This document shows, in pieces, positions 3-63,371 of a DNA stretch of 64,000 nucleotides. The notes under the pieces are model-generated. The model was not told the DNA's origin and made no database searches. It saw only the letters and a program-made list of their open reading frames with translations. The position numbers and the translations under genes were made by a program. Each line of letters opens with the position of its first letter. Positions within the stretch are counted from its first letter, which is position 1. The stretch comes from a virus. The DNA lies in IMG/VR virus record IMGVR_UViG_3300020156_000025, positions 25,985 through 89,984 of that record. One strand, written 5' to 3'.

Positions 3-2471
3 GCGGGTATGAGTGCCAAGGAGTCCACGACCGCCCTTGCCGACGTGGTGGATCTGAGCATTGCAGGGGAAATGGACATGGCGCGGGCGTCCGAGATCGT
101 GGTCGCCTCGCTTACCGCGTTCAAGCTGGAGGCGGAAAGCACGGCACGGGTCACGGACGTGCTCGCGCGAGCCGCCAACGCGTCGCCAGCATCCGTCAAC
201 GATCTCGGGGAGTCGCTGAAATTCGTGGCCCCCATCGCGCAGGCGCTCAAGGCCCCGATCGAAGACATCGGAGCCGCCCTTGCGATCCTCGCCAACAGTG
301 GGATCAAGGGAGGGAACGCGGGCCGCGGTCTGTCTTCCGTGATGGCGAAGCTGGTCGCACCGACCGCGGAGGCTAAGTCGATGCTGGACTCGCTGGGAAT
401 CTCTCTGGAGTCGATCAACCCGTCCATCGTCGGAATGGAGCGGGCGATGGCACAGCTTTCCAAAATGAACCAGCAGACGCTGGTGCGGATGTTCGGGGTA
501 GAAAACCTCGACATTGCCAACGTGCTCGCATCGAACGCGGACCGGATGGGCGAGTTCAGGCAGGCCATGTCGGACAGCACCATCACGGCGAGGGGGATGG
601 CGAAAGCCATGTCGGACACGCTGAAAGGGGACATGCAGGAGGCGAGCAGCGCGATCGAAGCGGTCCGCAAGGCAATCGGGAATCTGTTCAAGGGGGATCT
701 GCGTTCCCGGGTGCAGGGGTTCACGGAGTGGTTGCGGGAAAACCAGCAGGCCATCGTCGGGGTGGCGGACACGATGCGCGACCTTGCCCCTGTCGTGGTC
801 ACGGTGCTGGGGCACTACGTCGCGTTCAAGGGTTTGGCGATGGGGCTGACGCTCGGGAGGCAGGCCGTGGCGTGGGCTCTGGAAACCGCCGCGGTGGTGC
901 GGAACACGGCGTCGATCATGGCGAACGCCAATGCCCGCCGATACATGATGCAGGTCGGAATGTTCAACGCGGGTATTCCGATGGGGGTGGCCACGGCGCT
1001 CACGTCGAACGTGAGTTCGTTGTTCGCCGCCGCGTTCGGGGGAGGAGCCACCATTGCCGCGGTCAAGGCGGGATTGACGTTGGTGGGCAGTTCGGCCATC
1101 GCCGCCATCATCGGGTGGGGGCTGGGGAGTTACATCGAGTCTCAATTCAAGATCGGGGACCGGGTAGCCGCCGCGGTGTTCAAAACCTTCGATTCGCTGA
1201 ATGCCGCCGCGGACGATTCGATCAAGACGGTGCAAGGGATGATCGATGCGGCCAAGACGGAGGAACAGCTCGGTGAGGCCCGGGTGCGCGGGGAAAGGGA
1301 GCTTGCCAAATGGAAGGAGATTTCCAACCGGGCGGAGGACGAGTCGAAGACGCTGGCGGAGACCGTCGTGCAAACTTTGCAAAGACGGATGGAGCTGGCC
1401 GACCGGACGTTTGCGCGCAATCAGGCGAACCTCGCGCAGCAGCGGGAAGGTGCCGCCCTTGCCGAGGAGGAACTCAAGAGCAAGCAGGTCGCGCTCTACC
1501 ACGAGGAGAAGGCGATCGCGTTGCGCAAGTCTCAGCTCGACATGGAGAAGAGCACCCGGAGGAACGCCGTGGGCGTCAACCGGAATCTTCTGGAGCGGTC
1601 CGACGCCGGAACGAAGGAGGCGGCATACGATGCCGAGGAGCGTAGGATCACGTCGCTGGCCAATCACTACCGGACCCGATTCAACGCGGTGGCCGCGGCG
1701 GCGGGAGTGACAGTCATCAACGGGGACCGTGAGATCCGGACCGTGGACGGGGTGATCGCTTACTTCCGTGCCGCGATGCGCGCCGCGGGTGAGACGGGGA
1801 GCGCGGCGGTCCGCGGGGACGCCAGCCTGCATATCCTGACCAGATTCGCGCAGAGTGCGGACGCGATCATCCAAGCCCGGACGAAGCTGAACGAGACCGT
1901 CGCGAAGGACGAGAAGGCGGAGGAGAACGCGCTGCTCAAGAAGCGGGACCTGATGCTGGAGATCCAGATCGCGGAAGCGAAGGCAGCGGGGAACAACACC
2001 GGGGCGGAGAGGCTTGAGAGGGAGCTTCGCGTCTTGCAAGAGAAGCGCCGGATCATGGACGAGTTGAAGGTGTCGGAACGCGAAGCGACCGCCCTTGCGA
2101 CACGGAAGGTGGATGCGGAGATAGCGGCCAACCGACCGCCATCGGAGAGACCGGTGGACGTGGTGGCATCGTCGCTCCAGCAGGTAGGAGGCGGCGGGGG
2201 CTTCTTCATCGCGGGAACACAGAGCATCGGGGAGCGGCAGGTCCGGCTTGCGGAACAAGCCAACGCGCACCTTGCTGGAATCGCGGCCCGGTTGGGGGTG
2301 GGACTCTCTCCGGGAATCCTTCCGGGCGGGCCGCAGGTGACTGGATTGAACGGGCTCGGACGCACGCGGGAAACCGAATTGCTTGGACGGATCGCGGAGT
2401 TGCTGAACAGCATCGACGAACGCGGTAGGCGCAATCCCGGGAGCACGGCGCTCACGGTGGAAACACTCTAA
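3..2471 (+). CDS. Phage tail tape measure protein (5'-truncated by window)
   Basis: TP901-type tape-measure core (DLGESLKFVAPIA...ILANSGIKGGNAGRGL), long Ala-rich helical sequence, frame open to window start. Confidence 0.9.
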   Translation, partial: AGMSAKESTTALADVVDLSIAGEMDMARASEIVVASLTAFKLEAESTARVTDVLARAANASPASVNDLGESLKFVAPIAQALKAPIEDIGAALAILANSGIKGGNAGRGLSSVMAKLVAPTAEAKSMLDSLGISLESINPSIVGMERAMAQLSKMNQQTLVRMFGVENLDIANVLASNADRMGEFRQAMSDSTITARGMAKAMSDTLKGDMQEASSAIEAVRKAIGNLFKGDLRSRVQGFTEWLRENQQAIVGVADTMRDLAPVVVTVLGHYVAFKGLAMGLTLGRQAVAWALETAAVVRNTASIMANANARRYMMQVGMFNAGIPMGVATALTSNVSSLFAAAFGGGATIAAVKAGLTLVGSSAIAAIIGWGLGSYIESQFKIGDRVAAAVFKTFDSLNAAADDSIKTVQGMIDAAKTEEQLGEARVRGERELAKWKEISNRAEDESKTLAETVVQTLQRRMELADRTFARNQANLAQQREGAALAEEELKSKQVALYHEEKAIALRKSQLDMEKSTRRNAVGVNRNLLERSDAGTKEAAYDAEERRITSLANHYRTRFNAVAAAAGVTVINGDREIRTVDGVIAYFRAAMRAAGETGSAAVRGDASLHILTRFAQSADAIIQARTKLNETVAKDEKAEENALLKKRDLMLEIQIAEAKAAGNNTGAERLERELRVLQEKRRIMDELKVSEREATALATRKVDAEIAANRPPSERPVDVVASSLQQVGGGGGFFIAGTQSIGERQVRLAEQANAHLAGIAARLGVGLSPGILPGGPQVTGLNGLGRTRETELLGRIAELLNSIDERGRRNPGSTALTVETL

Positions 2472-6648: not shown

Positions 6649-7208
6649 TGCAGGTGTTCCGGATCAGTGACGCGCCCCGCGAGGGGGAAACCCCGATAAA
6701 ACCCGTGTGGGGGTTGGGGAAGGTGCGGGGGAATTGCTCGGCGCAGGCGTCGGCGATGGCCGCGGTGCTGCGGACGGACGTGTATCCGGCGGTGGTGCTG
6801 GAGCACGACGCGGAGCGTCTGCGGGAGGGGTGGCCGGATTTTGCACAATGTGCAAACGCGGGCATGGACTGGTTGTGGTTGGGGGGTTCAACCATCTGGT
6901 GCGATGAGCGGGGGGAGGAAGTCCGGGACAGGCCGATGCCGTGGATGCCGTCTCCGGTGGCGGGGGTGGCGAAGGTGGACGGGCTCTACACGACGCACGC
7001 GGTGGCGATCCTGACGCCGGACGGGGCGATGCGGGCGCTGTGCGCCGCACTGCAAGGAATCCGCAAGGGGTGGCCGGTGGACGTGGCGATCATCATGGAG
7101 TGCAGGCATATGGGCTGGGAACGCTGGTGCGTGACCGAGCCGTGGTTCTGCCAGCGGGGGGTGAACCGCAGGTGGACGGACAAACCGCTGCCGCCGCCCT
7201 TGCCATGA
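6645..7208 (+). CDS. Divergent GT25-like glycosyltransferase
   Basis: VVLEHDA, WLWLGG, YTTHAVAI, WPVD match GT25 motif order. Confidence 0.55.
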   Translation: MMQVFRISDAPREGETPIKPVWGLGKVRGNCSAQASAMAAVLRTDVYPAVVLEHDAERLREGWPDFAQCANAGMDWLWLGGSTIWCDERGEEVRDRPMPWMPSPVAGVAKVDGLYTTHAVAILTPDGAMRALCAALQGIRKGWPVDVAIIMECRHMGWERWCVTEPWFCQRGVNRRWTDKPLPPPLP

Positions 7209-7945
7209 GGACTCTGGTGCTGTCCTGCGACACGCTGGGAATGGAGGTGATTCCGACCGTGATCCGCTCGGTCGAACGGCACACGGAGGGGGCGCTGCGG
7301 GTGGTGGTGTATTCACGGGGAATGCATGCGGAGGGGTTCAGGAGGGGTAGGCTGGAGGTGGAGTTCCGCAGACCGAGGGAAGAATTCGGGCAAGCCAAGG
7401 GGCGGATCGCCGCGGAAATGTTCGACCGCTTGTGGTGCATTGCGGATTTGCAGGACACGGAACGGGTGATGATTCTGGACTGGGACCAACTGGCGGTCGG
7501 ATGTCTGGAGGAGCTGTGGGACGTGGAGATGACGGGGCAATTCGGGGCGTTCGTGCGCTCGCCCTTCGGCAAGACGTTCAAGTCGTCCCGGTGGATAGGG
7601 GAAGGTTACTGGGCGCAGGACATGCCGGGGGTGGAGCAACCGTTTTTCCGTTTCGGGGGGATGTTGAATCTGGAGGAGTGCCGGAAGGCGGGGATTTTGC
7701 AAACCGTGCAAGGGTTGGCGGGGAATGGATCGACCGAGCAGGCGTTGCTGGCCCACGCAATGGGAGGGAACTACGCGGGGTTGGACCGGAAATGGAACAA
7801 TCTTGTCAAATACGAGGGCTTGGTTCCGGATGCCCGCATCCTGCATTGGCACGGGGGGAAGAAGCCTTGGAGCCACGACGGGCTGGACCATGCGGAGTTG
7901 TGGCACGCGGCCCGGTGCTCGTGGAGGGAAATCCGGTTGACTTGA
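7205..7945 (+). CDS. GT8-like glycosyltransferase
   Basis: RVMILDWDQL (DxD), GMLNL, EQALL, LDRKWN, ILHWHGGKKPW are GT8 signatures; ATGA overlap. Confidence 0.8.
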   Translation: MRTLVLSCDTLGMEVIPTVIRSVERHTEGALRVVVYSRGMHAEGFRRGRLEVEFRRPREEFGQAKGRIAAEMFDRLWCIADLQDTERVMILDWDQLAVGCLEELWDVEMTGQFGAFVRSPFGKTFKSSRWIGEGYWAQDMPGVEQPFFRFGGMLNLEECRKAGILQTVQGLAGNGSTEQALLAHAMGGNYAGLDRKWNNLVKYEGLVPDARILHWHGGKKPWSHDGLDHAELWHAARCSWREIRLT

Positions 7946-11855: not shown

Positions 11856-11862
11856 CAACCTT

Positions 11863-12600
11863 TTGCAAACCGTGCAAAAACGCCTGCGACCGAATGGACT
11901 GGAGTGGTCATTGACGGTGCTCACCGCGTTGGCGTGGGGCACCTTGCTGTTGTTCCTGATGCAGACGTGCAAGGGGGCCACGGGGAACATTGCAGCGGGA
12001 CCGCTGGAAATCTCCCCGCAGGCGCATGCGCTGATCGTCAAGCATGAGACGGGAGGGGAAGCGTATTACCGGCGCTACCTGTCGAAGCCGTCTTGGCCGG
12101 GGGGTCAGAGCGGGGTCACGGTGGGCATCGGCTACGATGTGGGGTATAACACGAAGGCGCAGGTGCTGGCCGATTGGAAGCGGCTGCCGGAGGTGCAGCG
12201 GAACGCGCTCGCCACGGCTGCCGGGGTGAAGGGGGCGCTGGCCAAGCAACGTGCCCGGGGGTTGCGATGGTTCGGGGTGCCGTGGCCGCAGGCCAAGGAG
12301 GTGTTCGAGGCGCGGAGCATGCCCCGGTTCGGGGTGCTCGTGGCCAAGGCGTTCCCGGGAGTGACCACGATGCACCCGCACGTTCAGGGGGTGATGCTGT
12401 CGCTGGGGTTCAACCGGGGGACCGCGATGGCGGGGGCGTCCCGGCTGGAGATGCGGCAGTGCCGGGAGGCAATCCCGGAGAACCCGCGCGCCTTGCCGGG
12501 GTATATCCGCAGGATGAAAAGGCTGTGGGTCGGGAAGGGACTGGACGGATTGTTGCAACGGAGGGAAGAAGAAGCTTGCCTGATCGAGCGGGCCTTGTAG
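11863..12600 (+). CDS. Endolysin, pesticin/T4-lysozyme-like muramidase with N-terminal TM segment (start uncertain)
   Basis: HETGG...PSWPGGQSGVTVGIGYDVG, SLGFNRG, GLLQRREEEA. Confidence 0.8.
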   Translation: MQTVQKRLRPNGLEWSLTVLTALAWGTLLLFLMQTCKGATGNIAAGPLEISPQAHALIVKHETGGEAYYRRYLSKPSWPGGQSGVTVGIGYDVGYNTKAQVLADWKRLPEVQRNALATAAGVKGALAKQRARGLRWFGVPWPQAKEVFEARSMPRFGVLVAKAFPGVTTMHPHVQGVMLSLGFNRGTAMAGASRLEMRQCREAIPENPRALPGYIRRMKRLWVGKGLDGLLQRREEEACLIERAL

Positions 12601-12745: not shown

Positions 12746-12889
12746 CGTGTAACCGCTGCTAACCCCCCGGAACCGAAAATAATCGGATTTCGCCGTCAAG
12801 TAATACTCAATGAGTTACGACGATTTATACCCCTCGTTAATGCAAACTTTGCAAAATCGACTTGCTAAACGAAACCCGGACTGTATCCT
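12746..12889 (+). promoter_or_regulatory. Composite early-promoter module, copy 1
   Basis: CGTGTAAC...TCAATGAGTTAC...TGCAAACTTTGCAAAATCGAC-TTGCTA-N16-TATCCT; same architecture at 36334 and 40838. Confidence 0.7.
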
Positions 12890-12916: not shown

Positions 12917-13252
12917 ATGACTCTCGCCACTAAAATCCGCCGCCGCTTGTCCGCCCTTGAACGGGTGCTGAATCGCCGCAACCCTTACAGCCATCCTAGC
13001 TATGGACGTGCGTATGATACGTCGCTGAAAATTGGAGGAAAATTCGTTTCCCTGACTCGGCTAGGTGTTACCACTGAACTGTTCGAGGTGGGGTTCGATT
13101 ACACGGAACTCTCCGTCTATTCGGTATACGTGAAGCCCTCCGATGAGCCTCTGGCCACCAGCCAATTCATGGTGTTCGGCGCAAACACGCCATCCGAGGT
13201 TCTTTCAATCCTGAACCAATACTGGCCTTCCGCGCTCTGCCGCCCCGCCTGA
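12917..13252 (+). CDS. Hypothetical early protein
   Basis: ORF right after promoter module. Confidence 0.55.
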   Translation: MTLATKIRRRLSALERVLNRRNPYSHPSYGRAYDTSLKIGGKFVSLTRLGVTTELFEVGFDYTELSVYSVYVKPSDEPLATSQFMVFGANTPSEVLSILNQYWPSALCRPA

Positions 13253-13302
13253 TTTTTGCACACTGTTCAAAACCGCCTGAAACCCTCCACCCTCACACGA
13301 CC

Positions 13303-13657: not shown

Positions 13658-15307
13658 ATGAGTGCAAAGAGTGATTATACCGATACGATGGACGTGCATA
13701 ACCTAGCCGGGGTGGGGGTGTTCCTGACCCGGACAAGGGAACCTAACCGCACGATCGACGCCTTGCGGGAACTGGCGCAGAAGGACGGGCAGCCGTTCGA
13801 GAAGTGGGACCTCGCGATGGGGTGGCAGAAGTGGGTGATGCGCAATAACGTCATCGTGCACGAGAAGGACGGGTTGACGGAGCCGCTGGCCGCGCTCAAG
13901 AGCGTCGGGGGGATGCCGACGGGGACGCCCAAGACCGGGTGGAGCGTGATGGAGTGCATGCACCCGTTCCTAGGGGGGTATTCGGGACCGCCGAATCCGA
14001 CGATGGTGCAGGTGCTTCGGCACTATGCGTTCACTTTCGCGGAAACGGGGCAGCGGCTGGTGATCGTGGCCCCGGAGGGTTTCACGCTGCCGCAGGAACT
14101 CCAGCACGATCTGGTGGTGGTGGATTATGACCTGCCCGACAAGGAGGAGCTTGACGGAATGCTGGACGCCGCCCTTGCGTTCGCGTTCAAGGACCCCCGG
14201 CAGAGGGCGAGCGTGTTCACCGCGGAGCAGCGTGAAACGCTGGTCGGGAACGCGTCGGGAATGACCCGTCTTGAGGCGGAGGGGGCGTTCGCGGAAGCCG
14301 TGGTGCGGAACCGGAAACATTTGTCCGACCCGATCCCGAACCTGCCCTTCGAGCAGATGAACCGGGTGGTGATGAGCGCCAAGACGCAGGTGGTGAAACG
14401 CTCGGAGGTGCTGGAACTGATGCCGGTCGGGAACATGGCCGAGGTGGCGGGACTGGAGAATCTCAAGAGCTGGGTGCGCCGCCGCAAAACCTGCTTCACG
14501 AAGGCGGCGGAGGCCGCGGGGGTTGACCGCCCGAGGGGGTGCGCGCTGATCGGACCGCCGGGAACGGGAAAGAGTCTCTCGGCCAAGGCGATCGCGCACG
14601 AGCTGGGAATCCAGTTGATCCGCTTCGACGTGGGGCGGGTGTTCGGTTCGCTGATCGGGCAATCGGAACAGCGGGTGCGCGCCGCGTTGAAACACTTGGA
14701 GGCGATGGCCCCGTGCGTGGCCTTCATCGACGAGGTGGACAAGGCGGGGTTCGATCCGCGCCAAGGAGGCGGGGATTCGGGGGTGGGGAAAAGGGTGATG
14801 GGGTCGATCCTGACGTTCATGCAGGAGACCACGCAGCCGGTGTTCTGGCTGTTCACCGCGAACCGGGTATCCGGGATGCCGCCGGAGATGCTCCGCAAGG
14901 GGCGTCTGGACGAGGTGTTCGCCGTGATGCCGCCCACGTCGGCGGAACGCATGCAGGTGCTGCGCTTGCACCTTGCCAAGCGGAAACAGGACCCCGACAA
15001 GATCAAAGGACTGGAACGGGTGGTGGCCATCAGCGAAGGCTACGTCCCGGCGGAAATCGAGGCCGCGGTGAAGGAGGCCGTGGTGCGCGTGTTCGCCGAC
15101 GGGATCGAACTGACGGCGGACATCCTGTGCGAGGAATTGCAGAACATGAAACCGATGAAGGATGCCTTCCCGGAGGATTTCGCGGAGATGAACGCGTGGG
15201 CGGAGAACAACGCCCGGCACGCGTCGGAGCCGGAAACGGAACTCGCCGTGGTGATGGTGAACCCGACGCAAGGGGGAGTCCGCCGCCGCAGGGGGGGCAA
15301 CCTGTAG
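13658..15307 (+). CDS. AAA+ ATPase, Ycf46-like
   Basis: Walker A GPPGTGKS, Walker B FIDEVDK, SRH TANR...PPEMLRKGRLDE; degenerate N-terminal AAA domain. Confidence 0.9.
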   Translation: MSAKSDYTDTMDVHNLAGVGVFLTRTREPNRTIDALRELAQKDGQPFEKWDLAMGWQKWVMRNNVIVHEKDGLTEPLAALKSVGGMPTGTPKTGWSVMECMHPFLGGYSGPPNPTMVQVLRHYAFTFAETGQRLVIVAPEGFTLPQELQHDLVVVDYDLPDKEELDGMLDAALAFAFKDPRQRASVFTAEQRETLVGNASGMTRLEAEGAFAEAVVRNRKHLSDPIPNLPFEQMNRVVMSAKTQVVKRSEVLELMPVGNMAEVAGLENLKSWVRRRKTCFTKAAEAAGVDRPRGCALIGPPGTGKSLSAKAIAHELGIQLIRFDVGRVFGSLIGQSEQRVRAALKHLEAMAPCVAFIDEVDKAGFDPRQGGGDSGVGKRVMGSILTFMQETTQPVFWLFTANRVSGMPPEMLRKGRLDEVFAVMPPTSAERMQVLRLHLAKRKQDPDKIKGLERVVAISEGYVPAEIEAAVKEAVVRVFADGIELTADILCEELQNMKPMKDAFPEDFAEMNAWAENNARHASEPETELAVVMVNPTQGGVRRRRGGNL

Positions 15308-15401
15308 GAGGATTTCAACCGGGGGACGCGGGGCGGCGGTTTTCTGTAAGGGAACGTCTTTGCAAACTTTGCAGAATCCGCCCCGTCTCCCCCGTATTTT
15401 A

Positions 15402-15430
15402 TTGCTAAACGAAACCCGATACCCTAACCT
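15402..15430 (+). promoter_or_regulatory. Sigma70-like phage promoter
   Basis: TTGCTA-AACGAAACCCGATACCC(17)-TAACCT, with a TGCA box at 15359. Confidence 0.65.
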
Positions 15431-15482
15431 GTCCTTGTCGCCCGCCAAACCGCGACTTTCCACTCCAAACCGCCAAACCGCC

Positions 15483-16112
15483 ATGCCTGCGATCCAGACC
15501 CTCACGGGGGATGTCAATCTCCGCGCCGCTTCCGCCAAATGCCACGTGTGGCATGCGTCCGCTCCGGGAACCGCCACGTTCGGATTCGCGGAAGCGTTGC
15601 TCTTCGTCAACGCCCGCAACGGGAGGGGGGCGAGCACGCTGTCGATGCCCGATCCGCAGGGTTCGGTGCTTGGATTCTCCCCGGACATCGGGGGGAAGAT
15701 GACCGCCGCCGCGTATGACGTTTGCGAAGGGGAAATCCTGAAACTCATATCATCCGTGCGTTCGGGGCCGATGGCGGTGCACCAGTGCGCGACCATGTTC
15801 CTGCGGGTGCGGGCCAACGCCGCGGTGCAGCGGGTGGACATGCCGCTCTTGAACGATCCGTCGTGCAGGTTTACCGGGGGCTTCATCCAAGGACCTTTCG
15901 ACGTGCTGACGCCCGAGCAGGTGGACGCGCTGGAAGTCAAGGTGCCCGAGGCGTTCCGCCGCCTGATGATGCCGGGGCCGATGACGGAGCGGCTGTTCCG
16001 TGTCACTGTCCTGCAAGAGGCGAAGGCGGAGGTGGTGGCCGTGACCATGCGCGACGGGAAACAGGTGCAGGTGGAGACCGCCGTGCGCCGCCGCAAGCTC
16101 CGTCTCGACTGA
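15483..16112 (+). CDS. Hypothetical protein with C-terminal RRRKLRLD tag
   Basis: ORF between AAA ATPase and DUF1257 gene. Confidence 0.65.
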   Translation: MPAIQTLTGDVNLRAASAKCHVWHASAPGTATFGFAEALLFVNARNGRGASTLSMPDPQGSVLGFSPDIGGKMTAAAYDVCEGEILKLISSVRSGPMAVHQCATMFLRVRANAAVQRVDMPLLNDPSCRFTGGFIQGPFDVLTPEQVDALEVKVPEAFRRLMMPGPMTERLFRVTVLQEAKAEVVAVTMRDGKQVQVETAVRRRKLRLD

Positions 16113-16158
16113 GGACCGATTTTCAACCGTAACCAAACAATAACCAGAGCCGACACTT

Positions 16159-16650
16159 ATGAGCCATACCACATCGATCAAAACCGTGGCGATCAAAAGC
16201 ATCACCGCCGTGCGCGCCGCGGTGGAGGAGCTGAACCGCAAGGGCATCCGCTGCGAATTGCGGGAAAACTCCGTGCCGCGCATGTATTACCCGAACCAGC
16301 TACAGATGCACAAGGGGCGCAAGAACGAGATCGCGGATGCCGTGATCCATCTTCCGGGTTCGCGGTATGACGTGGCGCTGCTCAAGCAGGAGGACGGCAG
16401 CTACGAATGCGTGTTCGACGATTGGCAGAAGGAGGTGGCGAAGGTGCTGGGGCAGCCGTTCAAGGGCACCACGGAGCACTGGAGCGGAAACCGCCCGGAC
16501 ACCGAGCAGACGTTGCATTCGGTGGGGAAATTCTTGCAGGAATACTCGGTGTGCGCCGCGGTGGAAGCGGCGACGATGGCCGGGTATTCGGTGCTCGGGC
16601 ATTCGACCGATGCCAACGGGTGCGTGCAACTGCAAATCTCCGTGGACTGA
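16159..16650 (+). CDS. DUF1257 (Ycf35-like) protein
   Basis: MSHTTSIKT start, YDVALLKQEDGSYECVFDDW, QEYS...GY, ends in beta strand; typical partner of Ycf46 ATPases. Confidence 0.75.
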   Translation: MSHTTSIKTVAIKSITAVRAAVEELNRKGIRCELRENSVPRMYYPNQLQMHKGRKNEIADAVIHLPGSRYDVALLKQEDGSYECVFDDWQKEVAKVLGQPFKGTTEHWSGNRPDTEQTLHSVGKFLQEYSVCAAVEAATMAGYSVLGHSTDANGCVQLQISVD

Positions 16651-16700
16651 AACCCGCCCGCCCTTGACTCCCGCCCTCTCATCTTCCGATCCGAATTCTC

Positions 16701-16898
16701 ATGAAGACCATAACCGTTACCATTGATCAGGTAGGCCGCCCGAAAATCGAAGCAAACGGCTTCGCGGGTTGCGGATGCACGGACGCTACCCGTCCGATTG
16801 AAAACGCATTCTCCACCAATCCCGCCGACAAGGTGGTGGACGTGAAGCCCGAGATGCACCAAGGCGGGGAGATGGAACACCATCTCTACCAGCAGTAA
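16701..16898 (+). CDS. DUF2997 protein
   Basis: ITVTID..G...IEANGFAG.GC.DATRPIE...KPE. Confidence 0.8.
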   Translation: MKTITVTIDQVGRPKIEANGFAGCGCTDATRPIENAFSTNPADKVVDVKPEMHQGGEMEHHLYQQ

Positions 16899-17035
16899 CC
16901 CTTTCTCGCCCGGCCCCCCGGAGACAACACAGTGAACGCGGGGAGGGGTAACACCCTCCAGAACCCCCCGGAATCCCCCTCCCCGCTTCACCCTTCCCTT
17001 TCCCTTTTCCTTTCCACACCAACCGCCAAACCACC

Positions 17036-17407
17036 ATGAACACACAGCTTATCACGATCGCCCCGGACGGATCGATTTCCGGACTCGACTTCAAACGCAA
17101 GGGTCTCGACCTGCGACAATTCGGACACGCCGCGACGCGCCGCATCTCGGAGGTGGAGTGGGATGAGGAGCGCCAGAAATGGCGGGTGGTGTTCCTGATG
17201 GGGGGATGGGCCGGTGACGTGGCCACCGCGGAACATTGCGTGCGGGTGGGGTTGCCGCTGCCGGGGTCCGCAACGCTGGCGGACGGGGCGGTCAAGCCAA
17301 AGAACATGCTCATGTTCACCGATTATGAAGACGCGGTGGCATTTGAAATCACGATTGTGCAGGCCGCGCGCCTGTCCGGGAATGCCGCCCTTGTAGGGAA
17401 CGCCTGA
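17036..17407 (+). CDS. Hypothetical protein associated with the AAA/DUF1257/DUF2997 locus
   Basis: ITIAPDGSI...LDLRQFG..RRISEVEWD...W. Confidence 0.6.
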   Translation: MNTQLITIAPDGSISGLDFKRKGLDLRQFGHAATRRISEVEWDEERQKWRVVFLMGGWAGDVATAEHCVRVGLPLPGSATLADGAVKPKNMLMFTDYEDAVAFEITIVQAARLSGNAALVGNA

Positions 17408-18809: not shown

Positions 18810-19265
18810 ATGAGAAAAACCGATTCTCGGGGAAAGCTGCCCTCCCCGGCGCAATTGCGGGCACGCGCGTGGAGAAAGAAGGCGGAGGGGTGGGCGGAGT
18901 GGCTCGATCCGGACGAGCATGCCGTGGCGATGCACGTGCACAATTGCACGGCGGGGATGACGTGCGACGCGTCGGGAATCCTCTGTCCGCACCATTTCAC
19001 GGAGGGGTTGTTTTACCATGACACGCTGATCGTGCATCCGCCGCGGATCGCGGGGTTGTGCTGGGAACGGGTGAGGGGGTTGCTGGAGACGCTGGTGCGG
19101 AGGGGGGCGCTGCACATGGAGGAGGCGGGGGACAGGGACGGGACGCATTTCTGGTTCACGCTGCGATACGGATGGAAGCCGGGGAAACGGGAACAGAAGA
19201 GGATCGCCCTTGCACGTGCGCTGGAGCGCGAAGCTTACGGGGAGAAAGGAGAAGGGGAGCGATGA
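18810..19265 (+). CDS. Hypothetical protein
   Basis: ORF coupled to initiator gene. Confidence 0.5.
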   Translation: MRKTDSRGKLPSPAQLRARAWRKKAEGWAEWLDPDEHAVAMHVHNCTAGMTCDASGILCPHHFTEGLFYHDTLIVHPPRIAGLCWERVRGLLETLVRRGALHMEEAGDRDGTHFWFTLRYGWKPGKREQKRIALARALEREAYGEKGEGER

Positions 19266-22657: not shown

Positions 22658-22704
22658 GCAGGAATATGCACACTTTGCAAAAAGGCACGAAACGGAACGA
22701 CACG

Positions 22705-28229: not shown

Positions 28230-28237
28230 CGCCCTAC

Positions 28238-36798: not shown

Positions 36799-36909
36799 TC
36801 CTTGTCCCCCGTCCGCCCCGGAACTTTTTGCAAACTGTGCATTGCGTTCCGGGGCGGGAGGGAGCCAAGCTCCGCTCCGCAACAAAAACAACCGACCAAA
36901 AACAGAGAA

Positions 36910-38007: not shown

Positions 38008-38091
38008 ACCTCGACTCGGGGCGGAGCAGCCGCCATCCTTTAACCGGGATGTCGGCCTCCGCCCGCCCTTTCTTTCCAACCGCTGCCAACC

Positions 38092-39323: not shown

Positions 39324-39330
39324 CACTCCG

Positions 39331-40837: not shown

Positions 40838-40995
40838 GTGTAACCGCCGCTAGGGGAGAATTCTGGGTAATCCCCGGAATTTTTTGTTTTTGCGTATCAA
40901 CGAGTTACGACGGAAATCCGGTAAATTCGTGCAAACTTTGCAAAATCGACTTGCTAAACAATACCCGGTGCCGCATGCTGTCCCCCGTCAACCGA
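40838..40995 (+). promoter_or_regulatory. Composite early-promoter module, copy 3
   Basis: Same CGTGTAAC / TCAACGAGTTAC / TGCA box / TTGCTA-N17-CATGCT arrangement. Confidence 0.75.
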
Positions 40996-41437: not shown

Positions 41438-41470
41438 TTTTTGCACACTGTTCAAAACCGCCAAACCGCC

Positions 41471-45070: not shown

Positions 45071-45123
45071 CTGCGTGCACCCTCCCGCAACCGATCCACC
45101 TTTTGCACACTTTGCATAATCCT

Positions 45124-46671: not shown

Positions 46672-46759
46672 CACCGGAAGGATTTTGCAAACCTTGCAAA
46701 ACCGGTTTTTGTTTTGCTCAAAACTTGAGCATGCCCTGCGGGTATGCCATGCTGACGAC

Positions 46760-47404
46760 ATGCCGCCGCTGCCATCCCCCGCCGAATTCCCCTATCTGTG
46801 CTCCGATTTGGTCGCATGGGAGAAGCTCGGTTCCAGCTATGAAGTAATCCGCGTCTTCGCGGTTGTTACGAGGCTGTGCAGGGATATGACGGATGACATG
46901 CAAACACCGGCGGGATGGACCGGTTGGCACCAAATGGTCACGGCCCTATGGACAGGAGGACGAACACCCTTGTTGTCCAAGTTGGCCGATATAGGCCGAG
47001 CATCCGGTCCGTGGGAGATGAACGTCAGGCTGCTACGCGAATTGGGGACTCCTCGAATGGTGGCAGTAGCCGGGTCTTCCCCCGAGATGGGTCTAGGGCG
47101 GGCGTATTCGCGTCGAATCGATCTTGAAAGCGGCTGGCGCAGACTCGGATATTCTCCGGTTGATGAGGTCACGGGGCCGGTGATGGAAGTGATCCGGGAG
47201 TTGCAGGAGTTGGAATGGGATCTGATCAAAGACTCGACCTATACCGCGCTGCACGACATGTCGTGGAATGCCATCGATACTCTCTGGCATCGGTATTCGG
47301 ACCAATACGCCGGAGCGTGGATTCAGGTATCCCGGACGACGAAGCGCCAGCCCGTGCCCGCCGTCGATCCGTTGCAGCGCCGCCGCATCATCCGTCTCGA
47401 CTGA
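46760..47404 (+). CDS. Hypothetical protein with C-terminal RRRIIRLD tag
   Basis: ORF after TTGAGC-N17-CATGCT promoter-like site. Confidence 0.6.
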   Translation: MPPLPSPAEFPYLCSDLVAWEKLGSSYEVIRVFAVVTRLCRDMTDDMQTPAGWTGWHQMVTALWTGGRTPLLSKLADIGRASGPWEMNVRLLRELGTPRMVAVAGSSPEMGLGRAYSRRIDLESGWRRLGYSPVDEVTGPVMEVIRELQELEWDLIKDSTYTALHDMSWNAIDTLWHRYSDQYAGAWIQVSRTTKRQPVPAVDPLQRRRIIRLD

Positions 47405-47412
47405 CCCGACCC

Positions 47413-48132
47413 ATGAACTACTCCGTTGCACCTACCCCCGGAATGGAACGCTTGCGCGAATTCATCTTTCGCGCGTTGACGCTGATGCACGCCGCCGCCC
47501 TTGAGCATCCGGAGATGGCACCGGAAGACATGGACGACCTGCTGGTAGGTCGCCTGATCGTGCGCGAATGCGGGGAATGTGTCGCGTGCTGCGTCTATCC
47601 GTCGATTTCCGGGGAATCGGTCGATGCCACCCCGGAGGTCCCGGCGAAGGCCGCGGGGGTGAAGTGCGTGCATTGCACGAACACGGGGTGCGGGATATAC
47701 GCCCGCCGCCCGAAGGTGTGCAAGGGGTATGCCTGCCTTTACTCGATGGGGGTGGTGGACGAGCGACCCGACAAGGCACTGGTGGCATGGACCTTGCAAC
47801 CGGACATGAACCGCCCGATCGATGCCGACGGGGTGCCGCAAATGCTCCTTGTGGGACATTGCGATGACATCGACGAGGTGCTGGACGATGCGCGCAACCG
47901 GCAGGTGGTGCGGGACGCGCTGGTGCAGCCTTCCGTCGCTGCGGTGACGCTCAGGAGTGCACGCGTGGCCGTGGCGTTCATGCCCGACGGGAAGGTGATG
48001 CAGGTGGAGGTAAACCAAGCGGACGCGCTGAAATCCGCCCTCGTGCTCGAAACGGCCAAGGAAAGCAAGGACTGGCGGCATCCGTTCGATTGCCCCGCTT
48101 TTTTGAACACTTTGCAAAAACATACCGACTGA
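47413..48132 (+). CDS. YkgJ-like Cys-cluster (CxxCxxCC) protein
   Basis: CGECVACC...CVHC...GCGIYARRPKVCKGYAC. Confidence 0.7.
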   Translation: MNYSVAPTPGMERLREFIFRALTLMHAAALEHPEMAPEDMDDLLVGRLIVRECGECVACCVYPSISGESVDATPEVPAKAAGVKCVHCTNTGCGIYARRPKVCKGYACLYSMGVVDERPDKALVAWTLQPDMNRPIDADGVPQMLLVGHCDDIDEVLDDARNRQVVRDALVQPSVAAVTLRSARVAVAFMPDGKVMQVEVNQADALKSALVLETAKESKDWRHPFDCPAFLNTLQKHTD

Positions 48133-49553: not shown

Positions 49554-50702
49554 ATGACAAGACCGAAATTGGCACTGCGGGTGGGTGCGACATATGAGTG
49601 CCGCGACGGCGGGACCGCCCGGGTGATATGCGTGGACATGGCGGGTGCCTCTCCGCGATACTGCATCGCGTTGAAGGCGGTCCGCGACAAGAACGGGGAC
49701 GTGACGGAGCATGTGTTTCACTATGCGCCCGATGGCACTACCGGGGATATCGAACAGGCGCGCGATCTGATCCGGGAGATAGAGCCGGTATCGCCGTTCC
49801 CGGGATCGAACCGGAGGGTGCGGCTGGGATTGGACGAAGGGCTCATGCAACCGCCCCCGCAGGAAGGTAGCAGGGAGGCGATGGTGGTGCATTTCCGCGG
49901 GCTCGGGTGGCAGGAAATCCGCTTGCCTTCCGAAAGGGTCGTGTGGGTGAGCACGGAGGAGCAGGTTTTCACGGAATCCAAAATGTGGGAGGTTTACCGG
50001 GAATTTCTGGCTCGGCAGAGACCGGAGCCGCAGGTCCGGGACAAGACACCCCCGGCTCATCGGGTGGAAAGGTTCAGTGCGGCGCAGACACTTCCGACGG
50101 ACTGGACAATGGTTTTAATTGATATGCATTTGGGCAGGCGTATCCGTGTCATTAACCGTTCTCGTAATGGGTGGGGCACCGTATGGGTGTTTGATGCGAT
50201 GATTTCGCGCCCGGACGGGGACTGGGACCATCATCTGATCGAGGAAAGGAGCAGCGAAGAGGCAATGGCGTTCGCCCGGGCGCTGATTAAAACCCAGGTG
50301 CTTAAGGAATTGATAGGGGTGGCGGACGCTTTGGACGCGGAGGCAGAGCCGGATTCCGTCGCTTTGCCGCAGGCGACGACAACGTTGGGACGGAACGAGG
50401 CGCTCCCCTTTAACGGAGTGTCGGTTCACGGGCAAACTTACCGGGGCATTCGCTTCGTGGTGTCCCTGCGTGATTCGGTGAGTTGCCCAGCCGGAGGACA
50501 TGATGTGCTTATCCGCCGCCGGGAGGCGGATGATTGGCATTATTACGCTTTGGAGTATGCGTCCCGACATTACGCGATCGGTCAGGCTCTGCGGATAATC
50601 CGGGAATCGCCGCTGTGGCGCTTCGAGTGTGACGTGGAATGGCCGACCGGGGAGGACTATGGTGATGGGGACGGGGATGATGACGGCTACAATCCTTTTT
50701 GA
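49554..50702 (+). CDS. Mosaic hypothetical protein
   Basis: N-terminal YECRDG..ARVICVD phage domain; acidic C-terminus ending NPF. Confidence 0.6.
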   Translation: MTRPKLALRVGATYECRDGGTARVICVDMAGASPRYCIALKAVRDKNGDVTEHVFHYAPDGTTGDIEQARDLIREIEPVSPFPGSNRRVRLGLDEGLMQPPPQEGSREAMVVHFRGLGWQEIRLPSERVVWVSTEEQVFTESKMWEVYREFLARQRPEPQVRDKTPPAHRVERFSAAQTLPTDWTMVLIDMHLGRRIRVINRSRNGWGTVWVFDAMISRPDGDWDHHLIEERSSEEAMAFARALIKTQVLKELIGVADALDAEAEPDSVALPQATTTLGRNEALPFNGVSVHGQTYRGIRFVVSLRDSVSCPAGGHDVLIRRREADDWHYYALEYASRHYAIGQALRIIRESPLWRFECDVEWPTGEDYGDGDGDDDGYNPF

Positions 50703-51606: not shown

Positions 51607-51830
51607 AGACCACGCCTGCCGATTTCGACAAGGAACCGTCCCGGCAAAGGTTCGGGAAGGTGCCCCGGTTCACGTATTCCGTGAGGTGGGGGAACTGGTG
51701 GTTGCAGCCCGGGGGTTTGTTCCGGTGGACGCGATATGATTTCGTGGCAGGGGGTAAGCCCACGGTCAGGTATGACTGGCGGCGAATCCGGGGACCCGTG
51801 GACTTTTTGCAAACCGTGCAAAACCGATGA
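51603..51830 (+). CDS. Hypothetical protein
   Basis: ATGA-coupled short ORF. Confidence 0.45.
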   Translation: MKTTPADFDKEPSRQRFGKVPRFTYSVRWGNWWLQPGGLFRWTRYDFVAGGKPTVRYDWRRIRGPVDFLQTVQNR

Positions 51831-53441: not shown

Positions 53442-53504
53442 ATTTGCACACTGTGCAAAACAGAAACCGGAAGACAAAACTTCCGTCCGCGGGGGAGCTG
53501 TGCC

Positions 53505-57176: not shown

Positions 57177-57367
57177 GTGAACACGCCAGATGGGTCCATT
57201 TGCTGAGCGCGGGGGAGTGGCTGGGGAAGCCTTTGCTTGCGGAATGGTTGGAAACGAAACACCCTGCCGTCCGCCCTTCCCTGCGCGCCATCGTGGAAGC
57301 CGCGTGGAGGAACGGTGCCCGCCGGAAACCCCGCTGATTTTGCAAACTGTTCAAAACCGATACCGAT

Positions 57368-59717: not shown

Positions 59718-59941
59718 AAATGCAAACCGTGCAAAACCGGGGAGACTCCGATGACGAGGTGGACGTGGAACGCGTGCATGAAACCGCGGGAGCGTATGCG
59801 CTGCGGCGCTGGGGGACAGAGGAGAAACCGGAGTGGTTCCCCCGCTCGCAGGTGCACTTCGCGTCTTACAATCTCAAAACCCGCCGGGGGAAGGCCGTGA
59901 TCCCGGGGTGGCTGCTCAAGGACCGTGGCTGGAACACCTGA
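59714..59941 (+). CDS. Hypothetical protein
   Basis: ET..AY...EWFPRSQV...IPGWL phage small-domain motif. Confidence 0.55.
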   Translation: MKMQTVQNRGDSDDEVDVERVHETAGAYALRRWGTEEKPEWFPRSQVHFASYNLKTRRGKAVIPGWLLKDRGWNT

Positions 59942-60610: not shown

Positions 60611-60898
60611 ATGACACCTGAGCGCGCCAAAGATCTATTACCGTGCATTATCGCCCATTCCGAGCGGAAGACGATTCAGTCCCGGCGCGGGCCGGAAGAC
60701 CCTTGGCGAGACAACCCTGATCCCACGTTTTACGGCCCCGATGAATACCGCATCAAGCCCGGGCCGCGCGAGGTGTGGATGAACCTTTATCCGGGTGGAC
60801 CCGCGAGGATTTACTACGCCTCCCGAGAGGAGGCCGACAAGGCAGCCGAAAACGACCGCATCCACTGCGCCCGGATCGAGTTGCCGCCGCAGGAATGA
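60611..60898 (+). CDS. Hypothetical protein
   Basis: YRIKP.PREVW phage motif. Confidence 0.55.
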   Translation: MTPERAKDLLPCIIAHSERKTIQSRRGPEDPWRDNPDPTFYGPDEYRIKPGPREVWMNLYPGGPARIYYASREEADKAAENDRIHCARIELPPQE

Positions 60899-60938
60899 AC
60901 ACCTCGCGATCCATCGAACAATTACAATCGACACCGAA

Positions 60939-63371
60939 ATGAACCGACCGAACGAACAGACCGAGCCCTCCGCCGCCCTGAAACCCGACGATGCCGGTAG
61001 CGTGCCGCGGGTGATGACCGATGCACGGACGATGGAGGCATTGCCGGAACCCTACCACAGCCGGGCCAAGACGAGGCTCAGGGAGTATCTTGTGGCGAAA
61101 TACAATCTCGGGGAGGGAGAACCCGTGACCGCGGAAGCGGTGAATTCCCTCGTGTCCGGGGGGCTCTATTACGCGTTCGTATGGGACGAGACGCCGGAAG
61201 GACTGAATTTCTGGCGTCAGGTGGATGACGCGCTCCACAAGGGGAAGGGAACGCCGCTGCCGCCCTTCCCGTCATCGGAAGGAACATCGCGGGTGATGAG
61301 GGTGGAGCAATCGACAGGCATCGCGCAGGCGCTGCCGGAGCAATACAGGGAGCGGGTCGAACTCCGGGTGCGGGAATACGTCCGCACGCTGCACACGGAT
61401 ACGGAAAAGATCGAGGCCGAAGTCCGCGAAAGGTTGAATTCGTCGTTATGGCAGGCGTTTCCGTGGGGCAGCACACCTGAAGGGTTTCGATTCTGGCGGA
61501 AGGTGGATGCTGCCGTGAAACTCAGAGCCGGGGCGGAGCTGCCGCCCCTGCCTCCGTTGATGATCCATGCGAGGAACCAAGCCGGGGAGGTGGTAGCCAC
61601 GGCAGTGTATGACGACCCGGTGCGGAAGGACGAACCCGAACCCCCGCCCTTCGCGGTGGGGGACTTGGTGACGTTCCGGCTCAAGACCCGTGCGGGAACG
61701 GCCCGGGTAACCGCGGTGGATGGTAACGGGGTGACGCTGGACAGGATGCTCGGGGGGTGGAACCGATGGGAGACCCACCTGCTGCGCAAGGCCGGGGAGG
61801 CGGAGAGTCCGGAGAAAAAACAGGAAGCGGCATTGAAGGACAAGATCACCGCCGAGGTGCGGGGAGCGTTGAAAGAGGACAGGAAAACGATCGGGCCGTC
61901 CTTGGGGCAGGAGAAGGTGAAGCTACCGAGACTCAACAAAGGGGATCTGGTGATGGTGGAACGGTTCACTCCCGAATCCGGGGAGGGGATTCCGTTCATC
62001 ATGGAGATGGAGAAGATGGTGGGGCAGATCGAGACCGTTACCGCGGTGTATGCCAACGGGGCCTGCCGGGTCAATAATTGCATATGGCCGCGGAGGGCGT
62101 TGAAGAAGGTGATCGCGGAGGTCATACCGAACGAAGAACCGCGGGGGGAGGAGAAAGAAACTCCGTCCTTGGAGGAGAAGTTACAATGGTCGGTCAACAC
62201 CATACCCGCACCGCGCGCACGTCTGAAGACCGTAGGGAAGAAAGAAGAAAAAGCCCAGCCGTGGGGAATCGTGAAGAGATACCGTGCGGGAGACAAGACG
62301 GTGAGGATTGCCACCCGGAACGGACAACTGGACTACCCGCTGGATGGAATCGAGCTGCACCCGGAGGATGACAGGGAGGCCACCGAAAGGATCAGGGCAC
62401 GTAAGCAGAGGGGGCAGGAGATCGAGGAGAAACGGAAAGAAAAGGAACCGGTCTTGCAAACTTTGCAAAAAGAGGAGCCGCCTCATGACCCCTCCGCCAA
62501 GGACAAGCCCCGGCTGGTGATCCTGTATTCGGGGGGCTTCGACTCGCTGGCCATGCTGAGAGTAGCGAAGGGCAAGCAGGAGGAGCACGGAACGTGGTCG
62601 GAGATCGTGTGCCTGACGGTGGGAATGGAGCACGGGTATGCCGCCGCCGAGTCCGCCGCGATCCGACGGCAACACGCCGCGGGGGAGTTCAAGGGGGTGA
62701 GGCATGTGAACCTCGGGCTGCCCTTGCACGTGTTGCACGGGAAGGAACTGCCGCAGGGAGGACAGGGGAGCCAGATCATCCCGATGCGCAACCTGATGCT
62801 CGCTTCCGTCGCGTCGATGCTCGGAGGGGAAATCTGGTTGGGGGCGTTGAAGGGGGAACAGCTCGGGAAGGAGAGGGACAAGTCGGAGGAGTTCCGCCGC
62901 AGGTTGAACCACGTGCTGGGATACACGGGGGAGGGAATCGGGCACAAGGCGGAGCTGATGTTCCCGTTCCAGAACTACACCAAGACGATGCTGATGGAGC
63001 GGGTGGTGACCCGGCTAGGGTGCGGGGCGCTCGCGGACATGCTGGAACGCACATCGTCGTGCTACCTGCCGGACGAGGAGGGGATGGCGTGCGGAACCTG
63101 CCTCGCTTGCGTGAAGCGGACGATGGCCGTGGTGGGGGCGACGGGATTCTCGGTCCCGAACCTGTCTTGGCAGGCCGTAAGGACGACGATGCACGCCCCT
63201 TATGCGCAGGAGCTGCGGAAGGCGATCGGACTCGCGACCGGGGACAACTACGACAAGGAGCGGTTCACGGAGGACCGCGTGCTGGAGTTCCGCAGGGTGG
63301 AGGCCCTGATCGTGGCGGCGGGTATCTGGAACGCCGTGCAGGGAATGCCCCGTAGCAAAGACAATCCGTGA
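60939..63371 (+). CDS. queC: Multidomain protein with C-terminal QueC (7-cyano-7-deazaguanine synthase) domain
   Basis: From ~62514: ILYSGGFDS, IPMRNLML, TSSCY....CGTCLACVKR Zn site; N-terminal ~520 aa with two F.W..TPEG..FW repeats. Confidence 0.8.
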   Translation: MNRPNEQTEPSAALKPDDAGSVPRVMTDARTMEALPEPYHSRAKTRLREYLVAKYNLGEGEPVTAEAVNSLVSGGLYYAFVWDETPEGLNFWRQVDDALHKGKGTPLPPFPSSEGTSRVMRVEQSTGIAQALPEQYRERVELRVREYVRTLHTDTEKIEAEVRERLNSSLWQAFPWGSTPEGFRFWRKVDAAVKLRAGAELPPLPPLMIHARNQAGEVVATAVYDDPVRKDEPEPPPFAVGDLVTFRLKTRAGTARVTAVDGNGVTLDRMLGGWNRWETHLLRKAGEAESPEKKQEAALKDKITAEVRGALKEDRKTIGPSLGQEKVKLPRLNKGDLVMVERFTPESGEGIPFIMEMEKMVGQIETVTAVYANGACRVNNCIWPRRALKKVIAEVIPNEEPRGEEKETPSLEEKLQWSVNTIPAPRARLKTVGKKEEKAQPWGIVKRYRAGDKTVRIATRNGQLDYPLDGIELHPEDDREATERIRARKQRGQEIEEKRKEKEPVLQTLQKEEPPHDPSAKDKPRLVILYSGGFDSLAMLRVAKGKQEEHGTWSEIVCLTVGMEHGYAAAESAAIRRQHAAGEFKGVRHVNLGLPLHVLHGKELPQGGQGSQIIPMRNLMLASVASMLGGEIWLGALKGEQLGKERDKSEEFRRRLNHVLGYTGEGIGHKAELMFPFQNYTKTMLMERVVTRLGCGALADMLERTSSCYLPDEEGMACGTCLACVKRTMAVVGATGFSVPNLSWQAVRTTMHAPYAQELRKAIGLATGDNYDKERFTEDRVLEFRRVEALIVAAGIWNAVQGMPRSKDNP

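Follow-up and report, generated by a model that had tools for sequence, protein, structure and literature searches.

In the temperate Streptomyces phage phiC31, conserved inverted repeats (CIRs) of 17 bp lie in many intergenic regions and are bound by the repressor. More generally, descriptions of dispersed dyad repeats have accumulated over a decade for several phage groups, with neither a role nor a binding protein assigned to them. Mycobacteriophages of Cluster O carry a 17-bp 7-3-7 dyad, with 34 copies in the ~70-kb genome of Corndog and a predicted dimeric binder (Cresawn et al. 2015, PMC4351075), and the authors of the Microbacterium Cluster EG study compare their own repeats to those of Cluster O (PMC7302621). 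An array of the Cluster O kind, in the sense of a kind and not of a homologous family, is present in the uncultured phage genome of IMG/VR record IMGVR_UViG_3300020156_000025 (89,984 bp; designated G000, with relatives G001-G012): tens of copies of one dyad, mostly intergenic, conserved in a phage group. The stretch analyzed here, called the window, comprises bases 25985-89984 of this record (64,000 nucleotides), and coordinates are window positions unless given as genome positions. The array, built of boxes of the form TTTGCA-N5-TGCAAA, is real and non-random and resembles a set of protein-binding sites. Our preferred explanation, held tentatively and at somewhat less than even confidence, is that the boxes are putative operator sites on double-stranded DNA for a dimeric phage-encoded protein, the best candidate being a MerR-type protein encoded at 31312-31872.

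Dyad sites across the genome

Exact copies of TTTGCA-N5-TGCAAA number 11 in the window against 0.00 expected (100 shuffles), and a search with up to two mismatches gave 28 matches against 1.32 expected (largest shuffle 6). After exclusion of two poor, chance-like matches (38073-38089 and 49966-49982), 26 window sites are left, as an earlier note on this DNA had approximately counted. Some coordinates of that note are 1-2 nt off, at 12841 (12839), 36428 (36426), 40930 (40928), 22667 (22665) and 1369 (1367), and its list lacked three additional sites at 36827, 45102 and 59719. The whole record gave 37 matches, of which three poor ones were excluded, leaving 34 sites where ~1 is expected; their mean spacing is 2,652 bp, close to the ~2.5 kb estimated earlier. 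Scans for the exact 17-mer found 11 loci in viral contigs and at least 120 loci in genome contigs, with a single copy per contig among the matches listed; these are read as chance matches and give no pointer to the host.

The five center positions, unconstrained in the search, proved as informative as the arms in a position table of the 34 sites, and the consensus is a degenerate 8-1-8 dyad of 17-19 bp, tTTTGCAMR-C-YKTGCAAAa, with T preferred before the site and A after it. The center (position 9) is C in 33 of the 34 sites, A in one, and G or T in none; position 8 is A in 29 and G in 5, position 10 is T in 22 and C in 12, position 7 is A or C, and position 11 is G or T. Because the searched positions are palindromic, orientation must be read from the center, and because this is C and never G, all G000 copies are co-oriented with the genes. 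The co-orientation reported in the earlier note thus holds in a full-record scan, and the central C is the sole hard asymmetry of the G000 element. No reliable opposite-strand gene block exists in G000, so a flip of orientation with transcription direction has no comparison there. Positions 7 and 11 form A-G (14 sites), C-T (7), A-T (7), C-G (5) and T-T (1) pairs; they vary independently, which indicates half-site degeneracy and not base-pair covariation. The peptides LQTVQ and FANRAK, earlier read from boxes inside coding sequence, are correct for two of the frames.

Placement was determined by hand from open frames, the periodicity of G+C at third codon positions (GC3) and homologue alignments. 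By this procedure, 27 of the 34 sites are intergenic or at gene junctions, six are mid-gene, and one is in the final 110 nt of a gene. A deliberately conservative automatic test put 22 of 34 at junctions compared with 37% of random positions (p=1e-3), and nine of 34 sites begin within -6 to +10 nt of a stop codon, against 6.4% of random positions (p=2e-4). Nine G000 sites start 0-7 nt past the upstream stop codon, and four overlap the last upstream codons. Of the 11 uncultured genomes, all but G001 (16 of 28 sites) are significantly enriched for sites at junctions, and a start within -6 to +10 nt of the upstream stop is significant in nine of 11; in G010, G007 and G004, the TGA of TTTGA-type arms is often itself the stop codon of the upstream gene. 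According to the depositors' annotation of Aeromonas phage HJ05, 14 of its 25 sites are at junctions although the genome is 94% coding. In long intergenic gaps, the site adjoins the upstream stop rather than the following start, and the distance from site to next start ranges from 0 to >100 nt. A start-associated sequence of the Cluster K kind was ruled out by this variable distance and by the stop-adjoining sites in long gaps. Spacing along the genome is over-regular, with a coefficient of variation of 0.39-0.63 compared with 0.87-0.99 for an equal number of random gene ends, in six of six genomes (P <0.001 to 0.03).

All window sites are on the + strand. Those within genes are 1367-1383 (CGTGCAAACTTTGCAAA), in a 1038-aa tape-measure-like open reading frame (ORF) that is open for 2021 nt upstream and 1085 nt downstream of the site and has coding GC3; 6840-6856, whose center A is the sole non-C center; 7696-7712, in ORF 6941-7945; 19721-19737, in a conserved 525-aa gene (19058-20635); 39855-39871, in 39268-40128; and 62453-62469, in an 858-aa ORF with a QueC domain. 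Internal sites are common in long genes, including those for the tape-measure protein, polymerase and helicase, and the 19058 gene, whose copies in relatives also have them. An origin inside an initiator gene at 19058-20635 was considered and rejected; internal sites recur in six of nine genomes but at differing places, and other long genes are alike in this. The gene-end site, 28492-28508, lies in the final 110 nt of ORF 28172-28621, 99 nt ahead of gene 28608. The site at 34779-34795, previously listed as coding, is instead between a conserved Hjc-like resolvase gene (stop 34693) and the conserved part of an exonuclease gene, and G001 has a site at the same junction.

Among the remaining sites, the upstream stop codon ends 6 nt before 11862-11878, 2 nt before 13255-13271 (TGA; next ATG 31 nt on), 16 nt before 31889-31905 (the stop of the candidate reader gene; next ATG 25 nt on), 2 nt before 41440-41456 (TGA; next ATG ~14 nt on), 12 nt before the intergenic site 46684-46700, and 1 nt before each of 53443-53459, 57339-57355 (next ATG 12 nt on) and 59719-59735. 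The site at 48102-48118 overlaps the 3' end of gene 47215-48132, with the next ATG 13 nt on, and that at 51806-51822 is at a junction with the next ATG 4 nt on. The site at 22665-22681 separates the DnaB-like helicase and DNA polymerase genes, 45102-45118 is intergenic, and 36827-36843 (TTTGCAAACTGTGCATT) is inside an 11-bp GC-rich inverted repeat, 5' of gene 36802-38007. The other five (12839, 15359, 25569, 36426 and 40928) are promoter-proximal and are described below. Short A/C-rich leaders of accga type, without a Shine-Dalgarno sequence, precede many G000 gene starts (11879-11895, 22682-22706, 31906-31930, 41457-41471, 48119-48131 and 51823-51826).

Arrays in related phages and less likely readings

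By GC3-based gene calling, the + strand carries nearly all genes of G000, a record of 62.9% G+C whose completeness is 100% by CheckV. Its recognized structural genes encode the small and large terminase, portal, a MuF-like protein, protease, major capsid protein and a tape-measure-like protein; its replication and recombination genes encode an AAA ATPase (with DUF1257 and DUF2997 neighbors), DnaB-like helicase, family-A DNA polymerase, DnaG-like primase, a superfamily 2 (SF2) helicase, RecA, Hjc-like and RuvC-like resolvases and a Cas4-like exonuclease. Megablast against 50,697 phage records found no near relative of the window, and none of these records exceeds 32% identity to its large terminase. 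The window was also considered as a Cluster O mycobacteriophage; this was rejected on the lack of a near match among the same records and on the published Cluster O motif, which differs. The whole stretch is contained in one soil-metagenome DNA run, probably the source of the record, and two soil metatranscriptome runs contain 12% and 7% of its sampled words, as short low-depth contigs from which no RNA ends, joints or strandedness emerged.

A polymerase search returned four IMG/VR contigs at 42-54% identity, and a capsid-protein profile matched 58 loci. Arrays with differing half-sites occur in 10 IMG/VR relatives and four cultured phages, all with the replication module of G000, and every examined relative sharing that module has its own array. 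G001 has 28 sites of TTTGCA-N5-TGCAAA, as in G000, while G003 has TTTGMAC-N3-GTKCAAA, G005 TTTGCMC-N3-GTGCAAA, G004 TTTGACCGTCGGTCAAA (23 sites), G010 TTTGAAAACTTTTCAAA (43-45 sites, 43 exact), G007 TTTGMAACTGTTGCAAA (22-30 sites) and G011 CTGCAACAGTTGCAG (29-30 sites); 18-bp forms are found in G002 (TTTGCACGATCTTGCAAA), G006 and G012. Of the cultured phages, HJ05 has 25 copies of TTTGCAAC-NN-GTTGCAAA together with the complete syntenic module, and TGCA-N4-7-TGCA matches exceed those of a control pattern in Rhodobacter phage RcDurkin (37 vs 5, mostly TGCAATCGATTGCA, a perfect even palindrome), Rhizobium phage L338C (65 vs 3) and Pseudomonas phage SM1 (34 vs 3). From one genome to another the two arms change in step, and what is conserved is therefore the two-fold symmetry. 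No dyad array was found in G008 and G009, which are relatives by capsid with a different replication module; they carry instead 17-23 copies of a direct A/C-rich repeat, ACCCGAACCCGAAAYGA, that ends in the start codon and is thus a start-associated repeat.

Center polarity is strong in G000, G004 (T 21 : A 2), G005 and G001, moderate in G007 and G011 (19:10), and weak or absent in G010 (26:17), G003, RcDurkin and L338C. Because it varies among relatives, it is not a general requirement of the family. This bears on the idea that the element is a strand-specific DNA signal, read on one strand or as an extruded hairpin, at which DNA would be nicked or lagging-strand priming or loading would take place about one Okazaki fragment apart. 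Site-specific nicks are known from T5-type phages, and the strict polarity of G000, the strong polarity of G004 and G005, the regular 2-4 kb spacing and the linkage of the array to a primase/helicase/polymerase module would all suit such a signal. It is nevertheless improbable, as polarity fades in G010, G011, G003, RcDurkin and L338C, no nickase was identified, and the promoter phasing described below would go unexplained.

A transcribed dyad hairpin serving as a processing, stability or translation signal between cistrons was also considered. Sites are co-oriented with transcription, they lie between stop and start codons, at times 0-15 nt before an ATG without a Shine-Dalgarno sequence, and their self-complementarity survives arm changes between genomes. 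However, the hairpins are weak (0 to -6 kcal/mol for eight consensus sites, and 0 to -8 for the G000 sites), the commonest G003 form is unfolded, and within-genome changes break pairs: positions 7 and 11 are mismatched in 22 of 34 G000 sites, and C-T mismatches dominate G003 and G005. The stem sequence is also invariant within a genome, and phased sites upstream of promoters are in untranscribed DNA where what looks like an intrinsic terminator directly precedes them, as in HJ05. Altogether, such an RNA-level element is decidedly improbable. The sites were rejected as intrinsic terminators, since their hairpins of 0 to -8 kcal/mol are followed by A and not T, and terminator-like counts are at shuffle level. 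The 40 nt upstream of sites fold at -10.0 compared with -9.7 for random stretches, so there is no general preceding GC-rich hairpin. Outside the window, at genome 20300-20360, a strong hairpin (-28.8 kcal/mol) with a T-rich tail directly follows the major capsid gene and is itself immediately followed by a dyad site.

The divergence of half-sites is also relevant to whether the 17-bp gene-end sites might be recombination boundaries, that is, microhomologies at which RecA, exonuclease and resolvases would shuffle cassettes between related phages. The promoter early stem-loop (PeSL) elements of T4 and the attC sites of integrons offer parallels. The sites abut stop codons, the family encodes RecA, a Cas4-like exonuclease and two resolvases, and the orphan-rich right arm is dense in sites. 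Half-sites that differ between related genomes, however, cannot pair across lineages, and of the single accessory gene that was checked (genome 13968-14717) only one flank carries a site. Regular spacing, mid-gene sites and promoter phasing would be left unexplained, and we regard this possibility as highly improbable.

Promoter phasing and the candidate reader

In a scan with a strict sigma-70 consensus, a promoter-like pair lies at most 40 nt downstream of 34 of 269 sites, compared with 135 of 10,760 random positions. With genome-specific promoter motifs, a site was found upstream of 44 of 105 copies in 11 genomes. The gap from the end of the site to the -35 hexamer is 6-9 nt in 21 cases, 16-20 nt in 10 and 22-29 nt in 13, with none at 0-5, 10-15 or 30-60 nt, and these classes recur in several genomes; many pairs, however, are copies of a unit repeated in one genome and thus not independent observations of the phasing. 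Three classes ~10 bp apart suggest one helix face, with the site center near -51, -61 and -71. Class I activators have such an upstream geometry, with the factor touching RNA polymerase from upstream.

In G000, the promoter-like motif TTGCTAAACGAwAyCCGr has seven copies on the + strand, starting at 12862 (12862-12870), 13585, 15402, 25606, 36449, 40951 and 58327, and five of these have an upstream site, at gaps of 6, 6, 6, 20 and 26 nt. The sites with TTGCTAAAC 6 nt downstream are 12839-12855, 36426-36442 and 40928-40944; 25569-25585, which overlaps the final polymerase codons, has it at 20 nt, and 15359-15375, past the AAA ATPase gene, at 26 nt. The earlier note had placed boxes just upstream of promoters and proposed a roadblock; five do stand upstream of this repeated promoter-like motif, but their phasing upstream of -35 speaks more for a transcription-factor site than for a roadblock. 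The three sites with 6-nt gaps are within an ~80-bp unit repeated at 12790-12880, 36380-36470 and 40880-40970 (caacgagttayrac ... dyad site ... ATCGAC-TTGCTAAACGAwACCCGG), and the metagenome assembly graph breaks at such repeats, at 12841-12879 and 13245-13277.

In HJ05, promoter-proximal sites are preceded by what appears to be the T-rich tail of an ordinary intrinsic terminator; if so, the site belongs to the promoter region and is not itself a terminator. G007 has repeated units composed of a dyad site, a TTGACR promoter and an ORF starting MKS(T/I), for example at oriented positions 282, 2062, 18454, 22039, 53957 and 69068. The start codon there is only ~35-40 nt past the -35, which points to near-leaderless mRNAs for a family of small early genes. 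Three promoter-related identities of the site itself were considered and rejected. Sigma-54 promoters have a GC-to-GC spacing of 11, and the spacing here is 9. The position table has no conserved -35 or -10 beside the dyad, as a sigma-70 promoter would need. A classical MerR promoter operator does not fit, as no -35/-10 flanks the dyad and promoter-proximal sites end 6-29 nt upstream of -35.

The candidate reader was found by reading frames. ORF 31312-31872, on the + strand, encodes 186 aa whose C-terminal segment resembles an excisionase/MerR-type winged helix-turn-helix (HTH), and it is syntenic between the helicase and RecA genes. The earlier note had named this HTH protein as a possible binder, and it stands as the best candidate by its synteny with array-bearing genomes and its MerR-type profile match. 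A counterpart of 147-229 aa lies between the SF2 helicase and RecA genes in 11 of 11 array-bearing uncultured genomes examined. Profile searches found one homologue each in HJ05 (gp82, 67510-68031), L338C, SM1 and RcDurkin, at E 6e-24 to 6e-9, and gave no match in G008 or G009, the two capsid relatives that lack an array. The RcDurkin homologue, gp76, carries the annotation "helix-turn-helix DNA binding domain protein" and lies between "DNA helicase" and, one gene on, "RecA-like DNA recombinase". The homologues are 16-26% identical to the G000 protein, which has a basic N-terminal half, and some of them have an N-terminal GRP AT-hook-like motif. A nine-sequence profile matches the DNA-binding domains of CarA (2jml, E 9e-6), CarH (5c8d, 9.5e-5) and 3whp (1.3e-4). 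The nearest ESM Atlas clusters are viral MerR_1 families (score 0.90, at lead level), and three proteins, that of the window among them, were retrieved with the HTH alignment as query. Inspected by eye in 11 genomes, the recognition helix varies with half-site type in a way that follows, and is inseparable from, phylogeny. No other transcription-factor-like protein came out of scans of 79 window ORFs against Pfam and of 20 against phrogs. No match was obtained in Protein Data Bank sequence searches of three conserved proteins (19058, 36802 and 28608) or in a homologue search with 19058-20635.

If the boxes are operators, each degenerate 8-1-8 dyad would be read by a dimer of a phage-encoded DNA-binding protein. 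At the phased sites, the protein may contact or hinder RNA polymerase and so switch sigma-70-type promoters on or off during infection. The other ~80% of sites, after stops and in long genes, might punctuate transcription as a roadblock or insulator, or might just hold the protein along the genome.

Several points weigh against this explanation. A symmetric dimer cannot read the orientation of the central base pair, yet the G000 center is C 33 : G 0. Promoter-proximal sites are few (5 of 34 in G000, 44 of 269 in 11 genomes), and the promoter-site pairs are often in the repeated units that make their counts non-independent. Spacer length differs by 1 bp between relatives and also within L338C, which is awkward for a rigid dimer, and mid-gene sites in essential long genes oppose a constitutive roadblock. 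For the candidate, single-sequence Pfam matches to MerR_1 and HTH_17 in six of nine homologues are all below curated cut-offs. Since it is the entire replication module that accompanies the array, the reader could be any of the unknown proteins in the module; the putative reader at 31312-31872 is singled out by synteny, co-occurrence and fold type, which is not proof.

The same module linkage would also fit a genome-organizing lattice, in which a protein of the replication/recombination module docks to compact, anchor or organize replicating DNA and promoter proximity is a side effect of intergenic location. Over-regular spacing in all six genomes, sites within long genes where junctions are lacking (tape-measure protein, polymerase, helicase and the 19058 gene), an array that tracks the replication and not the capsid module, and the weak similarity of the candidate profile to the RacA DNA-binding domain (E 0.068) are in its favor. 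The RacA match, however, is not significant, sites adjoin the upstream stop codon even in long gaps, and three -35 gap classes ~10 bp apart with none at 10-15 nt are hard to explain without contact with RNA polymerase. A lattice of this type is considered unlikely.

Two further proposals of the earlier note concerned ParB and prophage repressors. A PF02195 (ParB_N) search of the whole record gave no candidate, nor did Pfam (79 window ORFs) and phrogs (20 ORFs) scans give a ParB, so the reading of the boxes as parS for a ParB-like protein is without basis; the 34 sites are moreover spread genome-wide at ~2.65 kb and not clustered. Searches of the record for tyrosine (PF00589) and serine (PF00239) recombinases had no match, and control searches beside these three profiles matched in 11-14 of 14 genomes. 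With no recombinase, nothing points to a prophage state that a repressor would silence. In a true stoperator system, a prophage immunity repressor on oriented sites would halt RNA polymerase and silence the genome in lysogens. With ~30 sites in each genome, placed at promoters or in short gaps between genes and, in G000, co-oriented with transcription, the arrays match the distribution described for L5 (PMC9283540). The sites are dyads and not the asymmetric 13-mers of that source (PMC9283540), though, and this record, despite its completeness rating of 100%, has no tyrosine integrase, serine recombinase or ParB. Nor is strict co-orientation a family-wide property, as several relatives do not keep it, and promoter-proximal sites lie upstream of -35 and not over the promoter. 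A stoperator system therefore has a very low probability.

Operators and lattice could also be combined. We think it unlikely, but a 70-110 kb siphovirus supergroup may keep an evenly spaced, promoter-phased lattice of fast-evolving dyad operators, with the MerR-type protein of the replisome/recombination module both switching sigma-70 promoters and punctuating or organizing the chromosome every 2-4 kb, thereby coupling transcription to replication. In this joint proposal, the supergroup would span uncultured phages of soil and water as well as cultured ones that infect Aeromonas, Rhodobacter, Rhizobium and Pseudomonas. If true, a joint switch and chromosome-organizing lattice would have no described equal among the regulatory architectures of lytic phages.

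Other features of the genome were recorded beside the array. The gene after the HTH gene, at 31931-32302, begins MNEDEPNQTPVRSRR, which contains a PVRSR tag. A block at 13658-17407 encodes the AAA ATPase, an unknown 210-aa protein, DUF1257, DUF2997 and a 123-aa protein (phrog_38408), and is conserved in G001-G005, G007, G010 and G011; HJ05 has matches for the AAA ATPase, DUF1257, DUF2997 and the 123-aa protein, and the 210-aa protein is without a tblastn match there. The conserved 390-aa protein of 28608-29780 has no Pfam match; the corresponding position in RcDurkin is taken by gp74, which bears the annotation of a T4 gp32-like single-stranded DNA-binding protein. The QueC domain within the 858-aa ORF (60795-63371) and a QueE-like radical-SAM gene outside the window (genome 5398-6291) suggest, from their predicted domains, 7-deazaguanine modification of the phage DNA; tblastn in G001-G004 found no homologue of either ORF. 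In the whole record, the + strand carries 59 copies of the octamer CGCCCTTG and the - strand a single one (in the window, for example, across 32-59252), and CCGCCCTTG has 46 copies on + and none on -; together they are a second, much shorter polar motif of Chi/KOPS-like character.

Relation to described systems

MerR proteins bind as dimers to dyad operators located between -35 and -10, in promoters with over-long spacers (19-20 bp). The candidate reader shares the MerR-type winged HTH, whereas the G000 sites are upstream of -35 or far from promoters, and the candidate has a basic N-terminal half in place of an effector domain.

Like the present sites, the stoperators of Cluster A phages L5 and TipsytheTRex exceed 20 in each genome and occupy promoters and short spaces between genes. 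They are oriented with transcription, and a single phage protein reads them all, as the operator explanation would have it here. They differ in being asymmetric 13-mers, in binding a monomer that has two DNA-binding domains, and in belonging to temperate phages, with orientation-dependent function (PMC9283540). G000, unlike them, has dyads and no lysogeny genes, and orientation is not kept across its family. The 18-bp inverted repeats of Cluster EG, GATCAACCNNGGTTGATC, are similarly located in short intergenic regions and are kept even where flanking DNA has diverged, but they number only 8-10 copies, at the right genome end only and 14-22 bp upstream of start codons (PMC7302621).

Cluster O comes closest in kind. 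Its phages, like G000, have ~30 or more dyads across the genome and no lysogeny genes, with many repeats intergenic and about a third coding, and the repeats are not tied to start codons and have no function assigned (PMC4351075). The sequence, TGTTCGGNNNCCGAACA, as well as the lineage and host, is different. The Cluster O authors saw no meaningful orientation and no promoter association for most sites (PMC4351075), whereas G000 has a polar center, over-regular spacing and phased promoter-proximal sites.

A literature search found no paper with the motif strings of this supergroup, and the words "palindrom", "motif" and "inverted repeat" are absent from the main text of the RcF-cluster paper. 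The cultured relatives HJ05, RcDurkin, L338C and SM1 make the array experimentally accessible, and the case offers a quantitative anatomy in regular spacing, stop-codon adjacency and ~10-bp promoter phasing. If true, operators of this type would explain a common unannotated layer of phage genome organization and would improve promoter and operon annotation of uncultured phages. Compared with the systems above, dispersed dyad arrays as a kind are already known, and what this case adds is the phasing to promoters, statistics on site spacing, one candidate protein identified by name and relatives in culture for tests.

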